A stretch of 12,178 nucleotides of DNA, from the IMG/VR virus record IMGVR_UViG_2778261086_000006, positions 1-12,178 of that record. One strand, 5' to 3'. The position numbers and the translations under genes were made by a program. The notes under the pieces were generated by a model. It made no database searches. It saw only the letters and a program-made list of their open reading frames with translations, and was not told the origin of the DNA. This document shows positions 1-12,178 of this stretch, piece by piece. Every line of letters begins with the position of its first letter. Position 1 is the first letter of the stretch. This DNA comes from a virus. Taxonomy: Duplodnaviria > Heunggongvirae > Uroviricota > Caudoviricetes.

Positions 1-1362
1 ATGTTTAAACCGGAACTCCTTTCCCCGGCGGGAACGCTGAAAAATATGCGTTACGCTTTCGCTTATGGCGCAGATGCTGTTTATGCGGGCCAGCCGCGTT
101 ACTCCCTGCGTGTGCGCAACAACGAATTCAACCACGAAAATCTTCAGCTCGGCATCAATGAAGCCCACGCGCTGGGGAAAAAGTTTTATGTCGTGGTCAA
201 CATTGCACCGCACAACGCCAAGCTGAAAACCTTTATCCGTGACCTGAAACCGGTGGTGGAAATGGGGCCGGATGCGCTGATTATGTCCGATCCAGGGCTG
301 ATTATGCTGGTGCGTGAGCACTTCCCTGAAATGCCGATCCACCTCTCGGTGCAGGCTAACGCCGTAAACTGGGCGACGGTGAAATTCTGGCAGCAAATGG
401 GCCTGACCCGCGTGATCCTCTCTCGCGAGCTGTCGCTGGAAGAGATTGAAGAGATCCGCAATCAGGTGCCGGATATGGAGATCGAGATCTTCGTTCACGG
501 CGCACTGTGCATGGCCTACTCCGGTCGCTGCCTGCTCTCTGGCTATATCAACAAGCGCGATCCGAACCAGGGTACCTGCACCAACGCCTGCCGCTGGGAG
601 TACAACGTCCAGGAAGGGAAAGAAGATGACGTTGGCAACATCGTACACAAGTACGAGCCGATTCCGGTGCAAAATGTTGAGCCGACGCTGGGTATCGGCG
701 CGCCAACCGACAAAGTGTTTATGATCGAAGAAGCCCAGCGTCCGGGCGAGTATATGACCGCGTTTGAAGATGAGCACGGCACTTACATCATGAACTCGAA
801 AGATCTGCGCGCCATCGCCCATGTAGAACGCCTGACCAAAATGGGCGTGCATTCGCTGAAAATCGAAGGCCGTACTAAATCTTTCTACTATTGCGCACGC
901 ACCGCACAGGTTTACCGTAAAGCTATCGATGACGCCGCTGCGGGCAAACCGTTCGATACCAGCCTGCTGGAAACTCTGGAAGGTCTGGCGCATCGTGGCT
1001 ATACCGAAGGTTTCCTGCGTCGTCATACTCACGACGATTATCAGAACTACGAATACGGTTATTCAGTTTCTGACCGCCAGCAGTTTGTTGGTGAGTTTAC
1101 CGGTGAGCGCAAGGGGGACCTCGCGGCGGTAGCGGTGAAAAATAAATTCTCCGTTGGCGACAGCCTTGAGCTGATGACGCCGCAAGGCAACATTAACTTT
1201 ACCCTTGAGCACATGGAAAACGCCATAGGTGAAGCGATGCCGGTCGCACCAGGCGATGGTTATACTGTGTGGCTCCCGGTCCCGCAGGATCTTGAGCTCA
1301 ATTACGCTCTGCTGATGCGTAATTTCTCCGGGGAAACCACGCGTAACCCACACGGTAAGTGA
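1..1362 (+). CDS. yegQ: Peptidase U32-family protein YegQ (TrhP-like), complete
   Basis: ATG at 1, TGA at 1360-1362, 453 aa. Contains the U32 signature E-I-F-V-H-G-A-L-C-M-A-Y-S-G-R-C (nt ~481-531). Length and sequence match my recollection of E. coli YegQ, which lies next to cyaR. Confidence 0.88.
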   Translation: MFKPELLSPAGTLKNMRYAFAYGADAVYAGQPRYSLRVRNNEFNHENLQLGINEAHALGKKFYVVVNIAPHNAKLKTFIRDLKPVVEMGPDALIMSDPGLIMLVREHFPEMPIHLSVQANAVNWATVKFWQQMGLTRVILSRELSLEEIEEIRNQVPDMEIEIFVHGALCMAYSGRCLLSGYINKRDPNQGTCTNACRWEYNVQEGKEDDVGNIVHKYEPIPVQNVEPTLGIGAPTDKVFMIEEAQRPGEYMTAFEDEHGTYIMNSKDLRAIAHVERLTKMGVHSLKIEGRTKSFYYCARTAQVYRKAIDDAAAGKPFDTSLLETLEGLAHRGYTEGFLRRHTHDDYQNYEYGYSVSDRQQFVGEFTGERKGDLAAVAVKNKFSVGDSLELMTPQGNINFTLEHMENAIGEAMPVAPGDGYTVWLPVPQDLELNYALLMRNFSGETTRNPHGK

Positions 1363-1396
1363 TTAATTTCGATTATTTTTCCCGGATGGAAAATTC

Positions 1397-1439
1397 TTAG
1401 AAACCGATCACATACAGCTGCATTTATTAAGGTTATCAT
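1397..1439 (+). promoter_or_regulatory. Candidate CyaR promoter: imperfect CRP-like site (TTAGA-N6-TCACA, 1397-1412) and -10-like TATCAT (1434-1439)
   Basis: Read directly upstream of the sRNA 5' end at 1447. CyaR is known to be CRP-activated. Left half-site is a poor match, so the exact site is uncertain. Confidence 0.35.
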
Positions 1440-1446
1440 CCGTTTC

Positions 1447-1533
1447 GCTGAAAAACATAACCCATAAAATGCTAGCTGTACCAGGAACCACCTCCTTAGC
1501 CTGTGTAATCTCCCTTACACGGGCTTATTTTTT
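1447..1533 (+). ncRNA. cyaR: CyaR (RyeE) Hfq-dependent small RNA
   Basis: Sequence GCTGAAAAACATAACCCATAAAATGCTAGCTGTACCAGGAACCACCTCCTTAGCCTGTGTAATCTCCCTTACACGGGCTTATTTTTT matches my memory of E. coli CyaR. It ends in a GC stem plus T6 intrinsic terminator and sits right after yegQ as in K-12. Confidence 0.85.
1507..1533. repeat. attL core: 27-bp direct repeat AATCTCCCTTACACGGGCTTATTTTTT, overlapping the CyaR terminator
   Basis: Identical 27-mer recurs at 11665-11691. Left copy is preceded by bacterial cyaR sequence, right copy by phage int-distal sequence. Confidence 0.85.
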
Positions 1534-1597
1534 ACGTACAACAAATTGAAATAAAAGGATTTATTTCTGGTCACGTCCACACATTGACCACATCGAC

Positions 1598-1622
1598 AAA
1601 AAAGCCCCTCGACTGAGGGGCT
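1598..1622 (-). terminator. Rho-independent terminator downstream of ogr (minus strand); potentially bidirectional
   Basis: Perfect stem AGCCCCTC/GAGGGGCT (1603-1610 / 1615-1622) with 4-nt loop GACT. On the minus strand it is followed by U6 (A-run 1598-1603 on +). On the + strand it is followed by TTCTGTTT. Confidence 0.6.
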
Positions 1623-1634
1623 TTCTGTTTGTAA

Positions 1635-1853
1635 TTACATCCACATAATTTGCTGCCCTGACGGCAACGGGTGTGGCCTTACGGCGTGGACTTCTCCCGG
1701 CTTCACGATGTATCGCTGTACCGACTCATAAGTGATGAACGTGGCGCTGCAATTCACGTTCTGACACTGGTGATAACGCTCTTTTGTCGTGTCAGTGATA
1801 TAGCGGCTTGTACGCGCATGTGCGGCATGCTGGCATAAAGGACAATGAAACAT
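1635..1853 (-). CDS. ogr: Ogr, zinc-finger late-gene transcriptional activator (72 aa)
   Basis: ATG at 1851-1853 with GGAAGAGGTG Shine-Dalgarno upstream. Protein MFHCPLCQHAAHARTSRYITDTTKERYHQCQNVNCSATF... has the Cys motif and matches recalled P2 Ogr / K-12 OgrK. The 93-aa track ORF is an upstream extension and unlikely to be real. Confidence 0.9.
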   Translation of the reverse strand: MFHCPLCQHAAHARTSRYITDTTKERYHQCQNVNCSATFITYESVQRYIVKPGEVHAVRPHPLPSGQQIMWM

Positions 1854-1934
1854 CGCGAGCACCTCTTCCGGTTTTATTGATGGTGCCATTTTAGTTAATT
1901 TATCCTTATAAAACAAACAGATAAAATAAAAACA

Positions 1935-3098
1935 TCACTCATCATCTTCTGTTTCGTACTCCACATCAGAAAGCCTGACCTCAAGCTCTAAAGACGTCGT
2001 GAAGCCGCTATTATTCAGAAAATGTGTCACCTTAGTGATTGTCCAGTCCTGCTCGTCTATGACGCGCTTAAAGCCTGACACTTTAACCGGTGTTTCCGTG
2101 TAAATATCTGCCCGACCGGTAGCCAGGCTGATGGAGAACTCCGCCACACCCCGTTGCAGTTTATCCCACTTCGCCTGAGCGGCGCGCATGGCCTGCGCTT
2201 TCGTGGCATATACCGTAGTCAGGGCAAAAACGTTGTCAGCCTCACCGGCCATGTATTCACCTTCGCGCGCTTCCGGTACTTTTGGCGCTTTCTTCTGCGT
2301 GACCGGTTTCGCTTTCGGGTGCTCCAGTGCGCGCAGGTGTTTTTCTTTCTTTTTGCGTTTCAGTTTTACCTTCTGCTTTTGCGGCTTCGGGTCTTTGGTG
2401 TGTAACCACTTTGCCGTTACGCCGGTGTAAGCTCCACGGTCAGCAATCGCAAAATGATGACGGTCGCCGTCGCTGCGGGTGATGGTAATCTGCGGGATTT
2501 TTTTACCGCTGGCCGTCACCCCCTGCCCCGCTTTGAGAAACAACAGTTTTCCCATTTTTACCGACACCTCACCGCCGTTGCGTTCTGCAAGACGGGTCAG
2601 GAATTTCGCATCAGACTCCTGCGACTGGTCGATGTGCGGGATTTTAATTCCGGCCAGTGACGGAGCGACACTGGCTTCCAGCCTGTTACGGGAGGCTATC
2701 GCTTCAACAATCGCACCGAGTGTGGTGTCATGCCAGGAGCCTTCCCGGCGGGAATTGAGCGTCCCGCGAAAATCTGCACTCCGGGCGCGGATGGTGACCA
2801 CATCCGGCGCGCCCCGGTGTTCAACCTCATCAACGGTGAATTTCCCTTTGCATACCAGGGCAAAACCTTTCCAGCCGATATACACCGTCAGGACAGCGCC
2901 ACGAACCGGTAGCCCGACCTGCCCGTCGGCATCGTTCAGTTCAATATCAAGCTGGTCAGCCTCAAAGCCCCGGTTATCCGTCAGGGTCATGCTCATCAGA
3001 CGGTCGCTGATATTGCCGGTAATATCCCTGCTGTCGAGCATCAGCATGTAATCCGGCGTCAGCGTACTGCCTGCATCAAATGTCAGTGCATCCAGCAT
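1935..3098 (-). CDS. D: Tail protein D (P2 gpD-like), 387 aa
   Basis: ATG at 3096-3098 overlapping the U stop. Length and position (between U and ogr) match P2 gpD as recalled. Confidence 0.82.
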   Translation of the reverse strand: MLDALTFDAGSTLTPDYMLMLDSRDITGNISDRLMSMTLTDNRGFEADQLDIELNDADGQVGLPVRGAVLTVYIGWKGFALVCKGKFTVDEVEHRGAPDVVTIRARSADFRGTLNSRREGSWHDTTLGAIVEAIASRNRLEASVAPSLAGIKIPHIDQSQESDAKFLTRLAERNGGEVSVKMGKLLFLKAGQGVTASGKKIPQITITRSDGDRHHFAIADRGAYTGVTAKWLHTKDPKPQKQKVKLKRKKKEKHLRALEHPKAKPVTQKKAPKVPEAREGEYMAGEADNVFALTTVYATKAQAMRAAQAKWDKLQRGVAEFSISLATGRADIYTETPVKVSGFKRVIDEQDWTITKVTHFLNNSGFTTSLELEVRLSDVEYETEDDE

Positions 3099-3577
3099 TA
3101 TCCCGCCCCCGTCATCCCCGTGAATCTGGTCGCCATACTGCCAGCTTTACCGATGAGCGATTCCGCCTGTTTACCGATATCGCCATAAAGCGCGGCCAGT
3201 GATTCATCAACGCGGGTGAGCGACAGCGTAAAATCAATTTTCCGGGGTGTGCCGTCTGCAAAGAAAATACTCCCTGTTTCACTTACCCTGCTGATGACAT
3301 ACATGCCGTAAATCATGCCGGTGCCATCCAGCAACGGCCACGCCCGGCCTTCATCTGCCATCAGCCTGAGCGTGGTCATCGTCAGCTTTCCGCCGGTCAG
3401 TTCGGGATAAAGCACACCGGCAAGCGTCATGTTTTCCTCACCCACACCGAGAAACTGGTAGGCCTCCCGTTTACCGATACGGGAATTTGACGGCCAGCGA
3501 TAATCTGATTCACGCTGCATGGTCTGGTGTGGCAGCGTCTGGCGCATAAAAACAAACATACCTAACGCGAGCATCAT
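3098..3577 (-). CDS. U: Tail protein U (P2 gpU-like), 159 aa
   Basis: ATG at 3575-3577. Protein MMLALGMFVFMRQTLPHQ... Length and synteny match P2 gpU as recalled. Confidence 0.8.
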   Translation of the reverse strand: MMLALGMFVFMRQTLPHQTMQRESDYRWPSNSRIGKREAYQFLGVGEENMTLAGVLYPELTGGKLTMTTLRLMADEGRAWPLLDGTGMIYGMYVISRVSETGSIFFADGTPRKIDFTLSLTRVDESLAALYGDIGKQAESLIGKAGSMATRFTGMTGAG

Positions 3578-3591
3578 TTTTCGTCACCTCC

Positions 3592-3903
3592 TTAACCGTC
3601 ATGCATCATGCTGGCACGGGCGCGCGCACGTTTATCCCGCTCGTATTTTTCGAGCGCATCCTGTAACTGGCGGTCAAGCTGTGTCCCCGGCGCAGTACCA
3701 CCCGTCAGGCTGATGTGATATTCGTTTTTACTCTGGTCCACATAAGAGCGGCCAGCCGGTGCCGTAACCGGCTGATAAGCCTGATAACCTGCATAAGAGC
3801 TGGTCGCCGGAATATAACCACCGGTGCCATACGTGGCGGCATGAGTCCTTGCGGCGGTCTGGTCAAGTGTGTCTGACTCTTTGTTGATAACCGTCGCGGC
3901 GAA
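3592..3903 (-). pseudogene. 3' fragment of tape-measure gene T (C-terminal ~103 codons, no start codon)
   Basis: Minus-strand frame translates to ...[41 protein letters not shown]...YHISLTGGTAPGTQLDRQLQDALEKYERDKRARARASMMHDG then TAA (3592-3594), directly upstream of U as in P2. The frame is closed by stops beyond 3904 and has no initiator. Confidence 0.55.
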
Positions 3904-4645
3904 TCAGCGTTGTGACGCCAGACTCGTTCAACAGGTCAGCATCGGTGCCGGACTCCTGCAAATCCCAGAATACAGATGCGCTGATGCCGGTAACACCGTT
4001 TACCCCGACGTTGGACAGCGTTTTATGCCAGCCCTGCTCCTGGTCGATTTTAGCGCGCAGACCCAGCGCACGGGCGGTGGCATACGCGGTGGCGGTGGTA
4101 CTGGTGACCGTATCCCATGCGAGGAAAACCGTAATTACATCGCCGTCGTAAGCCACACCACCGGCGAACAGGTAGCCGGGAATGTCCCGGGTAATGTTCA
4201 GGCCAATAAGATGACGGCTTGCAGGTTTGGCATCAGCAATCAGCCGTTCCATTTCCTGATACATTGCCTCTGTGATGCCACTTTCCAGTACACCAATATC
4301 AAGCCGGAAGGTGCCGGGCGGGTCACTGTTTTCCCACCACTCCGTCACGTTGATGAGATAGCCGAGCGGCTCCACCACACGCCGGATTGCACCGATAGTG
4401 CCCTTATGACAGTGGATGAAATAGGCATCGCGGATAACGGCGCGTTTTGTCGCTTCCGGCCACTTTTCATCCCACCTGTCGACCGAAAACGCCCACGCCA
4501 GCCACGGCAGCAGATTTGCCGGACAGGTATCCGGGTTCCACAGTTCACGAATCCTGACCGGCGTTTTTTCAATTTCCGCACAGGCTTTTGCGGCGGCAAC
4601 TTCAAGCGGTGATGAGCCGGTCGGCAGCAGTCGCGAATCACTCAT
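3863..4645 (-). CDS. Baseplate protein I-like ORF with aberrant C-terminal extension (260 aa); probable deletion-fusion product
   Basis: ATG at 4643-4645 overlaps the J stop. The N-terminal part ([26 protein letters not shown]...) resembles P2 gpI, which I recall as ~176 aa. This ORF instead runs 260 codons and reads into the T-fragment region in a different frame. Confidence 0.55.
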
Positions 4646-5546
4646 CCGAGCCTCCGGTCACGACGCGGTATTCGGTACAGAAAGACGCCTGCGTACTGTT
4701 GAGCACGATGTCGGCCAGCGGTGCAGTCAGTTCGACACGCTGCACGCCTTCCACATGCAAAGCGGCATAAATGGCAGACAGACGGATGTCGCGCCCCAGC
4801 CGGTGCTGTGCCGTGATGTACGCTTCCAGTTTTTTCACGGCAGCAGCGCGTATGGGTTCGCTTTCGGGACCAGGGTAAAGGTAAAGCGTGGCGTTTATCT
4901 GGTATTCAACGATGGCGGCAGACTGCACGGTCACGCGGTCGGCCACCGGCCTGACGTCCTCGCCATTAAGGGCGTTACGCACCACCGCCAGCAGGTCTTC
5001 GGATGCGACACCGTTATTTTCACGTGACAGCACAGAGATGGTGACGCAGGCCGGAGACGGACTGGTTACAGAAATATCCGCGACACGCCCGTCGGCACTG
5101 CGACCATGATACTGATAGGCCCCCACCGACCCGGCGACGCTTAAACCTTCAAACGCCTGCTGAATACGCAGACGATAATCCGTGTCAGATTCCATCACTG
5201 CCGGTGTCGGCGGGATGGTCGAATCATCTTCCAGGGTGATAATCAGGCGCGTGGTGTTGTAATTGGCACCAATCACATCAAGGTCATTACCGGCAGCACA
5301 GGCCAGCATCACCGCCCGTGCGGCCTCATTCACACGCTGACGCCAGATAAGCTCACGATAAGCATTTTCCTCCAGCAGTTTGACGAGAGGCTCAGATTCC
5401 AGCGTCAGGGTACGGGCGACCGCCTCCTGCTGGTCTTCCGGGTAAAGGGAAATCAGTGTCGCCTTGCGTTCGGCAAGAATGGTTTCAAAGTCCAGCTCCT
5501 CAACCACATCCGGTGCGGGTAGCTGGTTCAGGTCGATAATCGGCAT
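4638..5546 (-). CDS. J: Baseplate protein J (P2 gpJ-like), 302 aa
   Basis: ATG at 5544-5546. Length and synteny W-J-I match P2. Confidence 0.82.
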
Positions 5547-5550
5547 GGTT

Positions 5551-5898
5551 TCAACTCACAGGAATGGTTAACGAAAGTGGCTGGCCGGTGTCGTTGTGCT
5601 GGCCGGTTAACGTGACCGTCATTCGCCCGTCAAAACTGCGCTCAGTGGTGACGGATGACAGGGTGACGCGGGGTTCCCATTTCAGCACCGCCATGTAACA
5701 GGCGACCTTAATCTGCAACTCAAGCGCCGGGGTCTGCGGCTGGTCAATCATTGACGCCAGCAACGAGCCGTAATCACGACGCATCACCCGCGAGCCGACC
5801 GGTGTGCGCAGGATATCGCCGATACTCTGGCTGATATGCTCAAGGTCAGTGACAGTCAGGCCATCACTGCGATTCATTCCGAGATAACGCGCAGTCAT
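5551..5898 (-). CDS. W: Baseplate protein W (gp25-like), 115 aa
   Basis: ATG at 5896-5898 overlapping the V stop (TGA 5895-5897). Length and synteny match P2 gpW. Confidence 0.82.
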   Translation of the reverse strand: MTARYLGMNRSDGLTVTDLEHISQSIGDILRTPVGSRVMRRDYGSLLASMIDQPQTPALELQIKVACYMAVLKWEPRVTLSSVTTERSFDGRMTVTLTGQHNDTGQPLSLTIPVS

Positions 5899-6530
5899 AG
5901 AGGTCCCCCTGTTGTGCCGCCGCTGTCGCCGGGGTGTTTATGGGTATGAAGTACCTTACCGTTTGATGAGAGTTCACCGCCGGTGTGTTCAATGTTGCCG
6001 CGCATCGTCCCGCCCTTCTGCACTTCCAGCGTGCCGGTAATCAGCCTGTTGGTGCAGACCACCTCCGGTGTGTCCAGGGTGACGCGGGTTGATGCTTTCA
6101 CCATGACCACCGGCACCGTGGCGGTAACAGAATCAGAAGCCGTCACGCTGGCCGTTTTAATTCCGCTTACCGTAAGTGCACTGGTTTCGGGTTCATACTC
6201 AATCACCGCCCCGTCAGGGAAACGGATATGCAGGGCATCCGCCGACGCAGACGGCGGAGGGTTATCGCCGGAATAAATCCCCGGCAGAACAAACGCCGTG
6301 TCAAGTTCACCGCCCACGGCCAGAATCAGCACCTGCTCCCCCACGGAAGGTGCCCACCATGTGCACGAACGTCCGGCGCGATGGGTCAGCCACTGAAGCC
6401 AGTCGGTGCACATGCCGCCGGTCTGCACACGGCAGCGACCGGCTTTAAGGTTGGTTTCGACGACAAGGCCGGTACGAATCATGTTGCGCAGTGCGCGCGC
6501 GAGTTCCTGAATATTTGCGAGAGTGTTCAT
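5895..6530 (-). CDS. V: Baseplate spike/hub protein V (P2 gpV-like), 211 aa
   Basis: ATG at 6528-6530 gives MNTLANIQELARALRNMIRTGLVVETNLKAGRCRVQTGG... The track ORF start at 6566 is a TTG 12 codons upstream and is less likely. Confidence 0.78.
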   Translation of the reverse strand: MNTLANIQELARALRNMIRTGLVVETNLKAGRCRVQTGGMCTDWLQWLTHRAGRSCTWWAPSVGEQVLILAVGGELDTAFVLPGIYSGDNPPPSASADALHIRFPDGAVIEYEPETSALTVSGIKTASVTASDSVTATVPVVMVKASTRVTLDTPEVVCTNRLITGTLEVQKGGTMRGNIEHTGGELSSNGKVLHTHKHPGDSGGTTGGPL

Positions 6531-6607
6531 AACGGGAAGGATGCCGCTGGACGATACCAGCAGCAATCATGGAGGATTCTGTCAGCTGTGACACAACATA
6601 ATAAATA

Positions 6608-7363
6608 TTAGTTGTAGCACTTCTCTATAATCTTCATACACTCCTCATGAGCTAAATCATGGCTGTCAAATTCTTTATTAAAAAAGAAGAAAAACGCCTT
6701 CTTAACCTGAGGCATTTCAATAAAAATAAATTCATCAACCTTATGAAAGAAATGAAAACTCTTGTTTGATGTTTCAAAAACCATCAAAGAATTATGTTTT
6801 TTATCCTTCCATTTCGACATCAGATTGCGTCGCGATTTTCGTATAATCCTGAAGACATCCCCCGGCGTCGTATCGACATTCCCCCAAAACATTGCAACCG
6901 GAAAGTTTGCAAGGAACGGGATATAATCACCACCTTTATACCTGAGAAAGCGGTTCCGCAAATCCATTAATTGCAACTTAAAACCCATGTATTGCAACCA
7001 CCATATGATGCAATCATACTCATAATCTGTTAACTCCTCTCCCCTCTTTTCCGTAAGAAATTTCTTCAGGTTATACTCAAACACTCCCAGCAAATCAGAA
7101 TTGCACACTCTGCATGCTGGTACAGTGGCTTTAATGTAATGAGTTGACTGATTATTCTTTTTATTAATTAAAGATTTTTCAGTATTTGACTCAAAGGCCC
7201 ACTGAGGAATAATGTGCTCACGAGTAATATCGTCAGAACTCCCGCATAACACACATATATCAGCATTATGGTCAACAATAATACAATCCATAACTTTCTT
7301 TTGAGAGTGCTTTACTCTTTTTCTCAAAATAGAAAACTTTTCATCCATAAACACCCGTCTCAT
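6608..7363 (-). CDS. AT-rich cargo (moron) ORF, 251 aa: N-terminal Cys4 zinc-finger HNH-type nuclease motif plus ~160-aa C-terminal region of unknown function
   Basis: ATG at 7361-7363 overlaps the S stop (ATGA); TAA at 6608-6610. A sampled 60 nt (6621-6680) is ~32% GC against visibly GC-richer flanks. Motif C-V-L-C-G...D-D-I-T-R-E-H-I-I-P-Q-W-A-F...C-R-V-C-N fits the CxxC...DH-I-x-P...N...CxxC pattern of HNH nucleases. It occupies the S-V slot where P2 carries its non-essential moron orf30. Confidence 0.7.
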   Translation of the reverse strand: MRRVFMDEKFSILRKRVKHSQKKVMDCIIVDHNADICVLCGSSDDITREHIIPQWAFESNTEKSLINKKNNQSTHYIKATVPACRVCNSDLLGVFEYNLKKFLTEKRGEELTDYEYDCIIWWLQYMGFKLQLMDLRNRFLRYKGGDYIPFLANFPVAMFWGNVDTTPGDVFRIIRKSRRNLMSKWKDKKHNSLMVFETSNKSFHFFHKVDEFIFIEMPQVKKAFFFFFNKEFDSHDLAHEECMKIIEKCYN

Positions 7364-7818
7364 ATAACATCTTTCGATAGAATCACTAATAACTCCCTTT
7401 CTATCAATTGTATAGATTCCTTGTCAAAACCAAATAACTCACGAACAGGATATTCCACCACAGCACTATTACGCCCCGGCTTATCCTTAAGCCCTAATTG
7501 ATGTACTCGCGCAATTCGTTGCACTCCGCTGGCAAACTCCACCACCGCCGCACTCTCGCTACCTGTTGCTTTCATAAACCGGTTAGTGCGTAATTTCACA
7601 AACATTTCCCGCTTTATCCGGCCTTTCTTATTTCGCACTGGCTGGTTTTTTCTCGGTACATACGGCGTACCATCTGGGCCTTTTTGTAATTTAATTCGCT
7701 GCTGCTGGCGCTGGCGCAGTTTCTTCGCAATATCTACCGCCAGTCGCCGACGCCCTGACGGTGACAGCGACTCAATCAGTCCGGTCATCCGGTCTTCAAA
7801 ACGCTTAAACTCATTCAT
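7360..7818 (-). CDS. S: Tail completion protein S-like, 152 aa, with AT-rich 3' end
   Basis: ATG at 7816-7818 overlaps the R stop. Position between R and V matches P2 gpS. The last ~25 codons (nt ~7364-7440) are AT-rich, unlike the rest of the gene. Confidence 0.68.
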   Translation of the reverse strand: MNEFKRFEDRMTGLIESLSPSGRRRLAVDIAKKLRQRQQQRIKLQKGPDGTPYVPRKNQPVRNKKGRIKREMFVKLRTNRFMKATGSESAAVVEFASGVQRIARVHQLGLKDKPGRNSAVVEYPVRELFGFDKESIQLIERELLVILSKDVI

Positions 7819-8278
7819 CCCACTTGCTCACCAGTTCGCCATTGATATAAAGCTCCACCGGGCGGGTGACCGGCTCCGGCGGCGGAGGTTCCGGGATATT
7901 CTTCACATGCAGCGCACCGTCAACCTCACTGACCAGCGTGCGCTCGGTCAGCATCAGGCTGATACTGATATCAAAGCTGCTGTCATTGTTGATGTCTGCA
8001 TAAAATGTGAAGCCCTTTTTCTGGCCTTCGTCGGTGGTCATGATGTCGGGCTGATTTTCCCGCAGCCACGCCAGCACCGGCACGATGAGCAGGTCAAAAT
8101 CACCGGTAAAGTCGGTCACAATCACATTGAGCGTGTAACGCTTTTCGAATGACAGCGACGCCGCCAGTGTGGAGGCAATACTCCCGTTATCCACGAATAT
8201 CCGCAGCATCTCGGGGTTAGTTTTCAGCACCGTGACGGCATCAGTCAGCGCCCTGCGCAGGCTGTCGGGTTTGAGCAT
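7811..8278 (-). CDS. R: Tail completion protein R (P2 gpR-like), 155 aa
   Basis: ATG at 8276-8278 with AGGAAG Shine-Dalgarno 7 nt upstream. Length and sequence match recalled P2 gpR. Confidence 0.8.
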   Translation of the reverse strand: MLKPDSLRRALTDAVTVLKTNPEMLRIFVDNGSIASTLAASLSFEKRYTLNVIVTDFTGDFDLLIVPVLAWLRENQPDIMTTDEGQKKGFTFYADINNDSSFDISISLMLTERTLVSEVDGALHVKNIPEPPPPEPVTRPVELYINGELVSKWDE

Positions 8279-8340
8279 CGTTTTCTTCCTGACAGTGTTT
8301 AATCATTTTTACCTGGCTGGCACAACGTGCCAGCGCGTTC

Positions 8341-8502
8341 TCAAGCTGCCGGATAAGCTGCACGACGGGCAGCAGGTATTGGCGCGTCACACTCTTCGCA
8401 AACCAGCGCAGAAACACCGCAATGCTTTACCCTTGCCGCGTTAATCTGGCGCTCCAGTAATTCAGCCTGTTGTTCCTGAATAAAATCCACGTTGTCCGGC
8501 AT
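8341..8502 (-). CDS. Small TraR/DksA-type zinc-finger-like ORF (orf82 position), 53 codons, apparently truncated
   Basis: ATG at 8500-8502 overlaps the orf81-like stop. Translation MPDNVDFIQEQQAELLERQINAARVKHCGVSALVCEECDAPIPAARRAAYPAA then TGA. The CEEC-x-IPxxRR knuckle is present but the second CxxC is missing; downstream in-frame sequence (..TLCQPGKND) looks like a degenerate remnant. Confidence 0.4.
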   Translation of the reverse strand: MPDNVDFIQEQQAELLERQINAARVKHCGVSALVCEECDAPIPAARRAAYPAA

Positions 8503-8804
8503 TACCAGCTCCTTTTGTCGTTCAGTTTCTTAAATTCATCAGCGCAATAGCTGGCAATTTCAGCCGTTACTTTTGTCAGTTCGTCTACGGAGGAAATTTG
8601 CTTGTGAAATACAGCGCGTTTCACAAGTAAATTGACCACATCAGACAGGAGGTTTAATTCGTTCTGATAAATCGCGATAACAGATTCAGTTATTTCGTGT
8701 TTTTCTTTATCAAGCCTAAGTTGAATAAGAGACAAATCGCCATTTTTCATAACGGAGATTTTTAAGGCATTGTTCAGTAATACAATTGAACGAGAACAGG
8801 ACAT
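8502..8804 (-). CDS. P2 early-operon orf81-like protein (100 aa from ATG)
   Basis: ATG at 8802-8804 (the track start at 8807 is a TTG). Lies between the orf80-like and orf82-like ORFs as in the P2 early operon. Confidence 0.65.
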   Translation of the reverse strand: MSCSRSIVLLNNALKISVMKNGDLSLIQLRLDKEKHEITESVIAIYQNELNLLSDVVNLLVKRAVFHKQISSVDELTKVTAEIASYCADEFKKLNDKRSW

Positions 8805-9028
8805 CAAAGCACCTCCCCGCGAGACAATCCGATATTGTGAAATTTTTCCGACTCCTGACTGAGCAGCTCGACTATCTCCACGCGGGATAACTCCGCCTTT
8901 GTGATGTGGCGAATCATGGCGTCAAGATGAGAAGAAAAGCGCGTCGCTGCATCGGCCTGTGCTTCGGTTCTGGCCTGTTGCAGCAGTAATGCGTATTTAC
9001 CGCACTGATTTTCAGAAACTATATGCAT
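8804..9028 (-). CDS. P2 early-operon orf80-like protein, 74 aa
   Basis: ATG at 9026-9028. Position directly downstream of B in the early operon. Confidence 0.65.
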
Positions 9029-9091
9029 GACTTTCTCCAGGCAAAAAGAAGCCCCGCACGATTAAGTGCGTTAAAAACTCTGGTTAATTAT

Positions 9092-9592
9092 TTAATGCAG
9101 ATATTGCTCTGGTTTAACCGACGTCAGAATTGTCGGTGCATACTCAAACAGGCTGAATAATTCACGTAATGCACGGAATAAAGCATCACGCCAGTAACAT
9201 GACTCTTCATTAATTCGCCAGTATGGCTGGTTGAATTCTTTTTCAGTCAATCCGGCATGCATAAATAAAGTACGACGCTGACTGACTGTTAAAAAACTAA
9301 TATATGCATACTCACTTGCGCCAACCTGACGGCGTTTTGAGAATGCACCACGCAATTCATCAATTGCACATACCAGTCGTTCACGTTCGACGTCGTTCAT
9401 TTCTTCAAAACACATCGTTGCGTGACGCTGTTTTAACTGAGCATGGAAGCAAACCGTTAACCGTTCGCGCTCCATCATCTGATTATAATAATCGCATGTC
9501 TCCTGCCAGCGAGGGACGGCCAGATGCTTACCAATTATCCGGCGCATAGCTGCTGGCTGTTTTTCAACGAGATTGAGCGTCATCACTGTCAT
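9092..9592 (-). CDS. B: Replication protein B (P2 gpB-like), 166 aa
   Basis: ATG at 9590-9592 overlapping the orf78-like stop. Length and synteny cox-orf78-B match P2. Confidence 0.8.
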   Translation of the reverse strand: MTVMTLNLVEKQPAAMRRIIGKHLAVPRWQETCDYYNQMMERERLTVCFHAQLKQRHATMCFEEMNDVERERLVCAIDELRGAFSKRRQVGASEYAYISFLTVSQRRTLFMHAGLTEKEFNQPYWRINEESCYWRDALFRALRELFSLFEYAPTILTSVKPEQYLH

Positions 9593-9759
9593 TTCCAGAC
9601 CCTCCGGCTTTTCAGAAAGGTCAGAGCCTTTTTTAACGGACTCTGTTTTTTGGTGCGGATAATGATTCCCTTACGCCCCTTACCGTGGGTGATGGTGAAG
9701 TCAATCGCCCTGGGGCTTTCGTTACGCAATAACTGAGCAATACAACGAGGCTCATTCAT
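9589..9759 (-). CDS. P2 orf78-like small early protein (56 aa from ATG)
   Basis: ATG at 9757-9759 preceded by AAGGAGAA Shine-Dalgarno. The track's 64-aa version starts at a GTG (9781-9783) inside cox. Confidence 0.6.
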   Translation of the reverse strand: MNEPRCIAQLLRNESPRAIDFTITHGKGRKGIIIRTKKQSPLKKALTFLKSRRVWK

Positions 9760-9769
9760 ACGGTTCTCC

Positions 9770-10045
9770 TTAACGTGGTTCACCGAGACCTAACCACATC
9801 AACCAGCCGTCACGAATCTCTTTAGGACGGCTTTCATAAGCCAGTTTTAGTCCGTTATTCCATGCCGGAAGGTATACCCAATATTCACCAGCACGCCCCG
9901 ATACTGACTGAGGGTCAGTAATCTCAATAACTGGTAATTTCCCTTTCTCAATCATGCCCCTTACAGCTCTTGGAGTTTTACCAATGAGTTTTGCAAACTC
10001 CTGATAAGGCACGGCATCAGTCACGCTTACAAGCTGTCTATTCAT
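9770..10045 (-). CDS. cox: Cox, excisionase and repressor of Pc (91 aa)
   Basis: ATG at 10043-10045. Protein ...DAVPYQEFAKLIGK...GKLPVIEITDPQSVSGRAGEYWVYLPAWNNGLKLAYESRPKEIRDGWLMWLGLGEPR matches recalled P2 Cox. Divergent from C. Confidence 0.9.
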   Translation of the reverse strand: MNRQLVSVTDAVPYQEFAKLIGKTPRAVRGMIEKGKLPVIEITDPQSVSGRAGEYWVYLPAWNNGLKLAYESRPKEIRDGWLMWLGLGEPR

Positions 10046-10166
10046 CTGCTACGATTCTCCCTTAGTGCTTCTAATGGCTCCTAATGGCTAATTATTGCCT
10101 AAAAGGATAACTCCAGAAGCACAACATTTCACACTATCAGCAAGAAATTACGCAATCGGAGTAATT
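10046..10166. promoter_or_regulatory. Pe/Pc immunity-switch region between cox and C, with tandem 10-bp direct repeats CTAATGGCTC / CTAATGGCTA (10071-10090)
   Basis: Divergent cox and C genes flank this 121-bp region. The tandem repeat is read directly and is a candidate operator (C and Cox both recognise direct repeats in P2). Promoter hexamers not mapped. Confidence 0.5.
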
Positions 10167-10466
10167 ATGTCAATAGACGTTTCGGAGAAGTTGAAGCTAA
10201 TCCGTGAATCTGAAAGGTTAAACCGTAAAGAATTCAGTGAATTAACTGGTGTAGCCTACAGCTCACTTTCGAGCTATGAGAGCCGGTCAAAAAACGCTGG
10301 AGTTGAAGCCATAATGAAGGTCTTACAACATCCCAGATTTACTAAATATACTTTGTGGTTCATGACTGATCAGGTAGCTCCAGAAGCCGGGCAAATTGCG
10401 CCCGCTCTCGCACACTTTGGGCAAAACGAAACAACGTCGCCCCACTCCGGTCAAAAGACTGGTTAA
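10167..10466 (+). CDS. C: Immunity repressor C (P2 C-like), 99 aa
   Basis: ATG at 10167-10169 with GGAG 6 nt upstream. The C-terminal half (...FTKYTLWFMTDQVAPEAGQIAPALAHFGQNETTSPHSGQKTG) matches recalled P2 C. The 123-aa track ORF starts at an upstream TTG. Confidence 0.88.
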   Translation: MSIDVSEKLKLIRESERLNRKEFSELTGVAYSSLSSYESRSKNAGVEAIMKVLQHPRFTKYTLWFMTDQVAPEAGQIAPALAHFGQNETTSPHSGQKTG

Positions 10467-10581
10467 CAATTTATCGTGAATATATTCATCACAAGTGCCT
10501 ACTATTGGTGGCTAAATTTCAGCCACCACGAAAAAAGCGATTAGTAGTAGCAAAAAAAAGTACCACTCGGAGGGTTTTCTG

Positions 10582-11595
10582 ATGGCAATCAAAAAACTCG
10601 ATGATGGTCGATATGAAGTGGACATCCGCCCTACTGGACGTAACGGAAAACGCATCCGTAGGAAGTTTGATAAGAAAAGCGAAGCTGTCGCTTTCGAAAA
10701 ATACACGTTGTACAACCACCACAATAAAGAATGGCTATCAAAACCAACAGACAAACGACGTCTGTCGGAACTGACACAGATCTGGTGGGATTTAAAGGGT
10801 AAACACGAAGAGCATGGGAAATCTAATCTTGGAAAAATTGAAATCTTCACAAAAATAACGAATGACCCATGCGCATTTCAAATCACGAAATCCCTTATCA
10901 GCCAGTACTGCGCCACCCGAAGAAGTCAGGGTATTAAACCTTCGAGTATCAATCGTGATTTAACATGTATTAGCGGCATGTTTACAGCCCTGATTGAAGC
11001 GGAGTTATTCTTTGGTGAGCACCCTATCAGAGGGACAAAGAGGCTTAAGGAGGAAAAACCAGAAACAGGCTATCTCACACAGGAAGAAATTGCCTTACTG
11101 CTTGCAGCACTTGACGGCGACAACAAAAAGATTGCGATTCTTTGCCTGAGTACAGGAGCACGTTGGGGAGAAGCAGCTCGTTTGAAAGCAGAAAATATCA
11201 TCCATAACCGCGTCACGTTTGTTAAAACGAAAACAAACAAACCACGCACCGTCCCGATCTCAGAGGCTGTTGCCAAAATGATCGCGGATAACAAACGAGG
11301 TTTTTTATTCCCTGATGCTGATTACCCTCGCTTCAGACGAACAATGAAAGCAATAAAACCGGATTTGCCAATGGGGCAAGCCACACATGCACTAAGGCAC
11401 AGCTTTGCCACTCATTTCATGATTAATGGAGGAAGTATTATCACGCTACAACGGATACTAGGTCACACGCGGATTGAGCAAACTATGGTTTACGCTCATT
11501 TTGCGCCAGAGTACCTTCAGGACGCCATTTCTCTTAATCCGCTAAGAGGTGGTACTGAGGCCGAGAGTGTCCACACAGTGTCCACAGTAGAGTAA
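10582..11595 (+). CDS. int: Tyrosine integrase (P2 Int-like), 337 aa
   Basis: ATG at 10582-10584 with GGAGGG upstream. C-terminal catalytic motifs present (..ATHALRHSFATHF...LGHTRIEQTMVYAHF). Lies next to attR downstream of C, as in P2. Confidence 0.9.
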   Translation: MAIKKLDDGRYEVDIRPTGRNGKRIRRKFDKKSEAVAFEKYTLYNHHNKEWLSKPTDKRRLSELTQIWWDLKGKHEEHGKSNLGKIEIFTKITNDPCAFQITKSLISQYCATRRSQGIKPSSINRDLTCISGMFTALIEAELFFGEHPIRGTKRLKEEKPETGYLTQEEIALLLAALDGDNKKIAILCLSTGARWGEAARLKAENIIHNRVTFVKTKTNKPRTVPISEAVAKMIADNKRGFLFPDADYPRFRRTMKAIKPDLPMGQATHALRHSFATHFMINGGSIITLQRILGHTRIEQTMVYAHFAPEYLQDAISLNPLRGGTEAESVHTVSTVE

Positions 11596-11664
11596 CGTTT
11601 AAGGGCTTTCAGTGGTAATTTATGCCGCTCAAACCCGCATTGTACCGTTGAAAGCCCCTACTGG

Positions 11665-11691
11665 TGACACCCTAAATCTCCCTTACACGGG
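11665..11691. repeat. attR core: second copy of the 27-bp direct repeat, followed by one extra T
   Basis: Identical to 1507-1533. Located ~70 bp downstream of the int stop. Confidence 0.85.
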
Positions 11692-11765
11692 CTTATTTTT
11701 TTATGCATAAGCCCTATCTCTGGTAACCGTCTTCCATTGACCACATCGATAGAATCCTCCTTCAT

Positions 11766-11860: not shown

Positions 11861-12178
11861 TCACTCTCCACATTTGAATGTCAGACGAGCGACACCATGT
11901 AATCCTACACCTTCTGTCTTCAGCTCAACTATTTGCATTTTTTTGCCCTGAGTAACACAGAAATGAGTTGCATCATTTTTTACTATATTTTCTGCACCAG
12001 ATATTCTACCCCTGGCTAAAGAAGCTTCGGCTTCGGTGTAGTATTGGTTATCGAGTTTACGCTGAATATTACTTTTATATGCAAGACCAAATTTACCGAT
12101 ACTTGTCTCATCATTATGCACAGCACAACCAGACATAATAAAAATACTAATTAATGATATAGCAGCTATCTTTTTCAT
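11861..12178 (-). CDS. yegR: YegR-like small lipoprotein, 105 aa, complete
   Basis: ATG at 12176-12178 (window edge). N-terminal signal peptide with lipobox (IMSGC). Length and position match E. coli yegR near cyaR/ogrK. Confidence 0.8.
   Translation of the reverse strand: MKKIAAISLISIFIMSGCAVHNDETSIGKFGLAYKSNIQRKLDNQYYTEAEASLARGRISGAENIVKNDATHFCVTQGKKMQIVELKTEGVGLHGVARLTFKCGE

Follow-up and report, generated by a model that had tools for sequence, protein, structure and literature searches.

The decay by deletion of grounded prophages has been well described (PMC6379469; PMC13586616), and defective P2 elements are known to lose their mobility functions while cargo is retained (PMC13586616, PMC6379469). 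Two described systems can be set beside the locus reported here, phage P2 itself (NC_001895, 33.6 kb), with its gene order V-W-J-I-H-G / fun(Z) / FI-FII-E-E'-T-U-D-ogr, and PR-X of E. coli K-12 (ogrK and yegZ), an element of P2 origin at the cyaR-adjacent attachment site, which keeps ogr and a fragment of D. The window, by which the whole stretch of 12,178 nucleotides that was analysed is meant, contains a defective ('grounded') P2-like prophage of 10,195 bp from an E. coli draft genome. Site and P2 origin are shared with PR-X, but with only 629 bp PR-X represents a far later stage of decay, whereas the element in the window has kept both att cores and still possesses 20-odd open genes, int, C and cox among them. 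Equally, gene order and the att core (27/27) are those of P2, with the proteins V, W, J, I (residues 1-173), U, D and R being 95-99% identical and the fragments of T and FI 97-98% identical to their P2 counterparts. On the other hand, the element has, at 10.2 kb, no head, tail, lysis or replication functions; its orf30 position is taken by a cargo gene other than that of P2, and its S allele is divergent. Its late region is very probably the scar of short-homology deletions in a decaying P2-like prophage, which created an accidental in-frame fusion of the baseplate gene I to an internal piece of the tail sheath gene FI (I::FI').

Read on the opposite strand, the window is identical to a part of NNXC01000020.1 (E. 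coli draft genome GCA_002486895.1). The prophage occupies the 3' end of cyaR between the host genes yegQ/trhP (1-1362) and yegR (11861-12178), and, according to the open reading frame listing and homology, it lies antisense on the plus strand of the window. Compared with P2 by blastn, the window resolves into five collinear blocks of 90.7-97.1% identity (Table 1), and the P2 stretches 12722-18219, 18463-21997 and 27706-33593 plus 1-8377 are absent from it. P2 gene order together with the duplicated att core identifies a P2-like prophage; the full essential gene set of a functional phage is not found. As H, G, FII and E are without a match, FI and T survive in fragments only, and the Q-lysB block and A are gone, the element is a defective remnant. 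Full-length survivors are ogr, D, U, J, W, V, S, R, orf81, orf80, B, orf78, cox, C and int. The cargo gene between S and V found no match in Pfam, NCBIfam, PADLOC or PDB sequences, its only match being phrog_10503, a family of unknown function.

Table 1. Features of the P2-like prophage remnant and its borders in the window
Feature	Window position	Strand	P2 position, evidence and remarks
CyaR sRNA gene, host	1445..1530	+	Rfam RF00112, 100.7 bits, full length; 3' end overlaps attR core
attR core	1507..1533	.	27/27 identical to P2 attP core
blastn block	1507-3891		P2 24382-21998; att core, ogr, D, U, T 3' end
ogr, late-gene activator, intact	1635..1853	-	collinear with P2 24036-24254; Pfam Ogr_Delta
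Gene D, intact, 387 aa	1935..3098	-	tblastn 387/387 aa, 99% to P2 gpD
Gene U, intact, 159 aa	3098..3577	-	tblastn 159/159 aa, 97.5% to P2 gpU; Pfam Phage_P2_GpU
T', final 99 codons of T plus stop, aa 717-815	3592..3891	-	tblastn 98% identity, E 7e-58, frame -2
Chimeric ORF, 260 aa	3863..4645	-	gpI 1-173, gpFI 192-270, YQQRVRHT, stop
Junction B, FI/T	3889..3892	-	P2 18462/21998; out of frame
blastn block	3889-4131		P2 18462-18220; within sheath gene FI
FI', internal piece of tail sheath gene FI, aa 192-270/396, native frame	3893..4125	-	blastn, tblastn, Pfam
blastn block	4117-6530		P2 12721-10308; I, J, W, V
Junction A, I/FI	4126..4127	-	P2 about 12712/18220; in frame
Gene J, intact, 302 aa	4638..5546	-	tblastn
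Gene W, intact, 115 aa	5551..5898	-	tblastn
Gene V, intact, 211 aa	5895..6530	-	tblastn; first gene of the V operon, which now continues into T'-U-D
Cargo gene, low GC, 246/251 aa	6608..7363	-	P2 orf30 position, between S and V
Gene S, 152 aa, divergent allele	7360..7818	-	55% identical to P2 gpS
blastn block	7594-8355		P2 9139-8378; S, R, lysC 3' end
Gene R, intact, 155 aa	7811..8278	-	tblastn
orf82 truncated, aa 1-53/74 (TraR/DksA zinc-finger protein)	8341..8502	-	Pfam, tblastn
Junction C	8345..8355	-	P2 27705/8378; imperfect 11-bp repeat GCTG(C/A)CGGATA
blastn block	8345-11701		P2 27705-24356; orf82' through int, att core
Early genes orf81, orf80, B, orf78, cox, all open	8502..10045	-	ORFs, blastn
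Immunity repressor C, 99 aa	10167..10466	+	
Integrase, intact, 337 aa	10582..11595	+	
attL core	11675..11701	.	27/27 identical to P2 attP core and attR

An earlier note on this DNA had described an I-like open reading frame that is lengthened to 260 aa and ends at 3863 in a frame other than that of the adjacent T fragment. Both observations hold, backed by strong homology and not by chance resemblance, with frame -1 versus -2 and with 84 extra codons relative to the 176 aa of P2 gpI. Read codon by codon, the open reading frame consists of gpI 1-173 (...DGDVITV), followed by FI 192-270 (FLAWDTVTS...LIRRDG) and YQQRVRHT before the stop, the last being eight codons of T DNA in a register shifted by one base; the 84 additional codons thus comprise 79 FI codons and 8 out-of-frame T codons in place of the last three codons of I. 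Both gpI aa 1-174 and gpFI aa 192-272 were located by tblastn in frame -1, at 4645-4124 and 4126-3884, respectively, while the retained FI DNA as delimited by blastn amounts to 243 bp with 96.7% identity to P2 and 99.6% identity to the prophage of strain UPEC85. In agreement, Pfam recognizes in the chimera a complete Tail_P2_I domain (E 2e-55) and a partial Phage_sheath_1 domain (E 4e-14), PHROGs report a tail protein and a tail sheath, and NCBIfam is in accord. Membership of the gpI family is evident from PF09684 (186.9 bits against a cut-off of 20.6, model positions 1-139 of 139) and TIGR01634 (213 bits against a cut-off of 30.05), although the native end of the 176-aa protein (...VITVYPG) is not kept, its last three residues having been swapped out. 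A complete sheath protein (approximately 396 aa) is not encoded, as FI is represented by aa 192-270 only and the match to PF04984 spans model positions 88-158 of 168, which is less than half of one domain; PF17482 (Phage_sheath_1C) found no match in the chimeric open reading frame.

As window 3889-4131 matches FI, the extension of the open reading frame is sheath-derived and only its last eight codons derive from T. The source of the extra codons had previously been sought in T, with a frameshift near 3904, or in H. A single deletion from I into T would account for the eight terminal codons being T DNA out of frame; the preceding stretch, however, is 97-99.6% identical to FI and resembles nothing in T or H, and when the P2 proteins I, H and T were aligned by tblastn, as had been proposed for locating the breakpoint, T homology stopped at 3891 and H gave no match, which leaves this explanation with next to no probability. 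Equally, the sequencing error that had been suspected near 3866-3906 is dispensable, since the frame change sits exactly at the junction of FI and T (3889-3892). Neither among the 1,215 members of the 90% cluster of P2 gpI, almost all of which are, like P2 gpI, 176 aa long, nor among 5,426 complete E. coli genomes does an intact relative encode a 260-aa gpI with the C-terminus seen in the window, so that the reading as a deletion stands.

Downstream of the chimera, U is preceded by only the C-terminal part of the tape-measure gene T, as had been recognized, although the piece comprises 99 codons and a stop (tblastn T aa 717-815) and not approximately 103 codons. It has no start, an in-frame stop is located five codons upstream of the junction, where a stop had indeed been noticed, and no ATG occurs before the last few codons; in comparison with a full-length gpT (815 aa with a start codon, encoded downstream of E/E'), there is a promoterless C-terminal fragment, and E is absent. 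The earlier inventory of missing genes is right for H, G, Z/fun, FII and E, none of which has a tblastn match anywhere in the window, and has to be amended for FI, of which 243 bp are kept. Similarly, the deletion then postulated for the late region explains its anatomy but has to be replaced by two junctions, which bracket the FI fragment. Lost are H, G, the Z/fun cargo locus, FII, E/E', most of FI and most of T. With H (fibre), G (fibre assembly), most of the sheath, FII (tube), the E/E' chaperones and 88% of T removed, no tail can be built.

The deletions also bear on transcription. In the annotation of P2, both the V-operon terminator (15639-15666) and the pF promoter (17555-17628) fall within the stretch removed at junction A, and a search of the minus strand from I::FI' to U gave no terminator-like site or hairpin. 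Since the terminator and pF are lost, T', U and D would be transcribed only by read-through from pV, and T'-U-D have probably become an appendage of the V operon. The region upstream of V shows gap-free identity with intact relatives; an Ogr-box TGT-N12-ACA inspected there by eye is of ambiguous spacing.

For the description of the late-region junctions, P2 and the closer relative UPEC85 were used as parents. At junction A, gene I is broken three codons before its stop and joined to FI codon 192, the product reading ...GTAATTACGGTTT / TCCTCGCATGG... from the parents ...ACGGTTTACCCCGGATAA in I and ...GGCCGGATTTCCTCG in FI, with a perfect microhomology of 2 bp (TT) within the imperfect repeat CGG(T/A)TT. 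This deletion, of 5.5 kb relative to P2, includes the last three codons of I, H, G, the V-operon terminator, the fun(Z) locus, the pF promoter and the 5' 190 codons of FI. At junction B, 243 bp beyond junction A, FI codon 270 is joined to T codon 717; here the product is ...CGCGACGGTT / ATCAACAAAG... and the parents are ...GACGGTTTCCGC in FI and ...TCGG(G/T)GTTATCAAC in T, which gives a microhomology of 3-4 bp (GGTT with UPEC85 as parent, GTT with P2). About 3.5 kb relative to P2 are missing at this place, namely the 3' part of FI, FII, E/E' and the 5' 88% of T. Such microhomologies suggest short-homology, RecA-independent deletion of the replication-slippage or template-switch type. By chance, junction A preserved the reading frame and junction B did not, with the 260-aa open reading frame as an accidental outcome.

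The odds of one event versus two are roughly even. A single event of serial template switching (I to FI to T or the reverse), with the FI piece as templated filler, has a probability that comes close to one half. The heptamer ACGGTTT ends both upstream parents (I, P2 12706-12712; FI, P2 18457-18463), and from the start of I to the end of T it exists in only two plus-strand copies in P2, UPEC85 and the prophage of strain Combat13F7, while random pairs of positions have a 7-mer in common within +/-2 nt at a frequency of 5e-4; equally, a CGG(N)TT-like sequence lies at each of the four breakpoints. The coincidence of the heptamers was, however, spotted post hoc. Genomes with junction A only or junction B only, the intermediates of a two-step history, were found neither among the 5,426 complete genomes nor by 32-mer scans of sequence collections, an absence that agrees with a single event but carries little weight, since the collections contain few close relatives of the draft genome. 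Furthermore, other strains carry single deletions from I into FI that left the FII-T region intact, which makes a two-step history entirely feasible.

Junction C connects DNA of the lysC/R-upstream region to orf82. The corresponding deletion of approximately 14.3 kb has taken the 3' part of orf82, orf83, A, orf91, the tin/old locus, cos and the genes Q-P-O-N-M-L-X-Y-K-lysA-lysB, hence functions in replication, cargo, cos, head and lysis. The genomes IAL7250, EC_Lstone01 and L5_E1779 were considered as carriers of the same junction and rejected; their deletions are similar but distinct, with lysC-side breakpoints at P2 8378, 8374 and 8306 and A-side breakpoints at 28209, 28279 and 28215, respectively, and their remnants are unrelated to the one in the window. 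It can be observed that the lysC-side breakpoints cluster beside an annotated attenuator hairpin (P2 8399-8417), which the lysC-side site GCTGCCGGATA (P2 8368-8378) adjoins. The presence of ACGGTTT at both late-region junctions and the recurrent lysC-side breakpoint by the hairpin could mark sequence-determined deletion hotspots that channel the decay of P2 prophages.

The fusion is rare. A 361-bp probe across junctions A and B was recovered from none of the 5,426 complete E. coli genomes, while the 243-bp FI piece as such was matched in 1,655 of them, with no match crossing either junction. By exact protein look-up, the 260-aa protein occurs on one contig, NNXC01000020.1, and scans for 32-mers across each junction found none in the viral, metagenome and species-representative genome collections, the last of which has little power for a junction search, as it contains one genome per species. 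The best match among E. coli genomes with adjacent I and T fragments was provided by the dog isolates Z1323PEC0011 and H26, which were rejected as instances of the same event because the locus is another one and the T fragment is on the opposite strand.

Intact prophages, on the other hand, occupy the cyaR-adjacent site in many strains. Combat13F7 (NZ_CP019245) harbours an intact P2-like prophage at the same cyaR/yegQ-yegR site, which aligns with window 1-3891 at 98.4% identity and no gaps, is 97.8% identical over 4117-8355 and even shares the cargo gene located between S and V. The intact prophage of UPEC85 (NZ_CM137000) at this site, likewise aligned gap-free, is 99.2% identical over window 1-3892 and carries retron Eco8 as its hotspot cargo. 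In contrast to the window, both keep a 176-aa I, H, G, hotspot cargo, FI, FII, E and T as well as the head, lysis and replication genes. The absence of the junctions from other genomes, combined with intact relatives at the same site, indicates that the scar is recent and strain-specific.

As the junctions rest on one assembly, which is moreover a draft, an assembly or sequencing artefact was considered, in which the prophage would in fact be intact or otherwise arranged and the contig would have collapsed P2-like repeats. In E. coli, several P2-like prophages often coexist, the median being 3 matching places in a genome, and this can confuse assemblers. Collapse of repeats, however, needs long identical stretches, and joins of 2-4 bp are far below any assembler k-mer; three separate junctions are present within a 10-kb element, all flanked by gap-free alignments, the contig has been reported in 2 samples, and analogous deletions are found in complete genomes of long-read quality. 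An artefact can consequently be considered very unlikely.

A protein search with the chimera revealed three other fusions of Tail_P2_I to sheath sequence (P0016, P0022 and P0018; contigs of GCA_031631535.1, GCA_025425255.1 and GCA_018460965.1), all in defective P2-like prophages. As in the window, a deletion of 5.4-5.7 kb with a microhomology of 2-12 bp leads from inside I into FI and leaves an in-frame open reading frame. Unlike in the window, these prophages are located at the fieF/pfkA site, their breakpoints are P2 12619/18028, 12444/18031 and 12484/18127, and the whole C-terminus of FI is kept with no second junction; FII-E-T-U-D are intact downstream of the fusion at two of the loci (L007, L008), and the contig of the third (L009) ends inside the fusion open reading frame. 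Judged by these sequences, deletions from I into FI recur independently. Since the protein search can detect only in-frame fusions, their in-frame state is subject to ascertainment bias and carries no weight.

These cases are also pertinent to the idea that the 260-aa protein is a native long gpI or a functional fusion under selection, for example a dominant-negative baseplate protein directed against superinfecting P2-like phages. In-frame joining at junction A, the nearly complete gpI (173 of 176 aa), the three further in-frame fusions, and an intact ogr and V operon, which make expression upon trans-activation conceivable, are in line with this idea. The chimera, however, is known from one contig only as opposed to the 176-aa gpI that dominates the 1,215-member cluster, and its sheath part is a partial domain that ends in eight out-of-frame residues. 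Furthermore, the other fusions differ in breakpoints and FI portions and therefore share no conserved common architecture, the search that found them is restricted to in-frame cases, and no PADLOC defence family matches the chimeric open reading frame at E <= 0.01. A native or selected function is thus very improbable. In its most specific form, for which an equally small chance is seen, the chimera, along with the intact genes V, W, J, U and D, might be expressed from pV upon induction and would then poison the baseplate or tail-fibre assembly of an incoming phage. Induction would then depend either on the resident OgrK or, upon superinfection by a heteroimmune P2-like phage, on the Ogr of that phage, and the near-complete gpI with its misfolded sheath appendage would constitute dominant-negative superinfection interference by a defective prophage. 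Most likely, the chimeric open reading frame is an accidental, non-functional by-product of the deletions, a pseudogene product.

The deletional scar as preferred here has consequences for annotation. The 260-aa 'phage tail protein I' should read chimeric pseudogene I::FI', and 3592-3891 should read T pseudogene fragment. With sheath, tube, tape measure, fibres, heads, lysis and replication lost, the remnant is incapable of producing particles or tailocins. On the other hand, int, cox, C and the hotspot cargo gene have survived all three short-homology scars, which fits the published picture of cargo retention. The locus is a clean example of known prophage decay and no new kind of system, and can be seen as a snapshot of decay at the cyaR-side P2 site, between the intact prophages and the 629-bp PR-X. 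Beyond correct annotation its significance is slight, although those who model deletion bias could find some modest interest in the way particular short motifs are reused as breakpoints.

The heptamer ACGGTTT forms the upstream-parent sequence at both late-region deletion junctions, I to FI (junction A) and FI to T (junction B), and just these two plus-strand copies occur in the I-T interval of P2 and of the intact prophages of E. coli UPEC85 and Combat13F7. That the heptamer is common to both junctions, for which the chance expectation is about 5e-4 when calculated post hoc, hints that junctions A and B arose in one serial template-switch event.

Fusions of baseplate gene I to sheath gene FI by in-frame deletion have arisen independently in three more E. 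coli strains, in each case in a defective P2-like prophage at fieF/pfkA; the FI-side breakpoints of two of them, P2 18028 and 18031, lie just 3 bp apart. Equally at fieF, in another defective P2-like prophage, that of E. coli Z1323PEC0011, a fragment of T adjoins a truncated I and is annotated as running against the direction of U (L002 9469-10476). The same genes as in the window have here been rearranged independently, perhaps by an inversion-deletion.

Coordinates of junctions, fusions and genes
Feature	Sequence	Position	Strand	Remark
ACGGTTT	window	3886-3892		phage-sense parent P2 18457-18463
ACGGTTT	window	4126-4132		phage-sense parent P2 12706-12712
I::FI fusion	L007	10001-11236
I::FI fusion	L008	10001-11062
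I::FI fusion	L009	10001-10911
Cargo gene	window	6608-7363	-	246/251 aa; between S and V, where P2 has orf30
Gene S	window	7360-7818	-
cyaR with att core	window	1445-1533		cyaR: Rfam, 100.7 bits
Third junction	window	8345-8355
Remnant junction	L011	~1651-1656
Remnant junction	L005	~20903-20909
Remnant junction	L012	~1721-1728

Gene S is a divergent allele, shared with Combat13F7, that has just 55% identity to P2 gpS; it is flanked by P2-like R (98%) and V (96%), and its mosaic boundary adjoins the cargo gene. The latter, low in GC (36-40%), encodes a CxxC...H...CxxC-N (HNH-like) motif; its sole match is phrog_10503, a family of unknown function, with no sequence match in Pfam, NCBIfam, PADLOC or PDB. 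As a GTP pyrophosphokinase gene occupies the same position in another strain, the cargo gene may be an uncharacterised defence-hotspot gene.

The gene for the CyaR sRNA and the att core of the prophage overlap. Integration of the P2-type element takes place at the 3' end of cyaR, in its terminator, and restores the gene. The same site harbours in K-12 the 629-bp remnant PR-X (ogrK, yegZ).

At the third deletion junction, which falls on an imperfect 11-bp repeat, GCTG(C/A)CGGATA, the lysC side (P2 8378) is joined to orf82 (P2 27705). Head, lysis and replication genes have been deleted independently in three unrelated P2-like remnants (L011, L005, L012), with lysC-side breakpoints at P2 8378, 8374 and 8306 and, in two of the three, A-side breakpoints 6 bp apart (28209 and 28215). 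In all cases the lysC attenuator hairpin adjoins the breakpoints, and this clustering suggests a possible deletion hotspot beside the hairpin.
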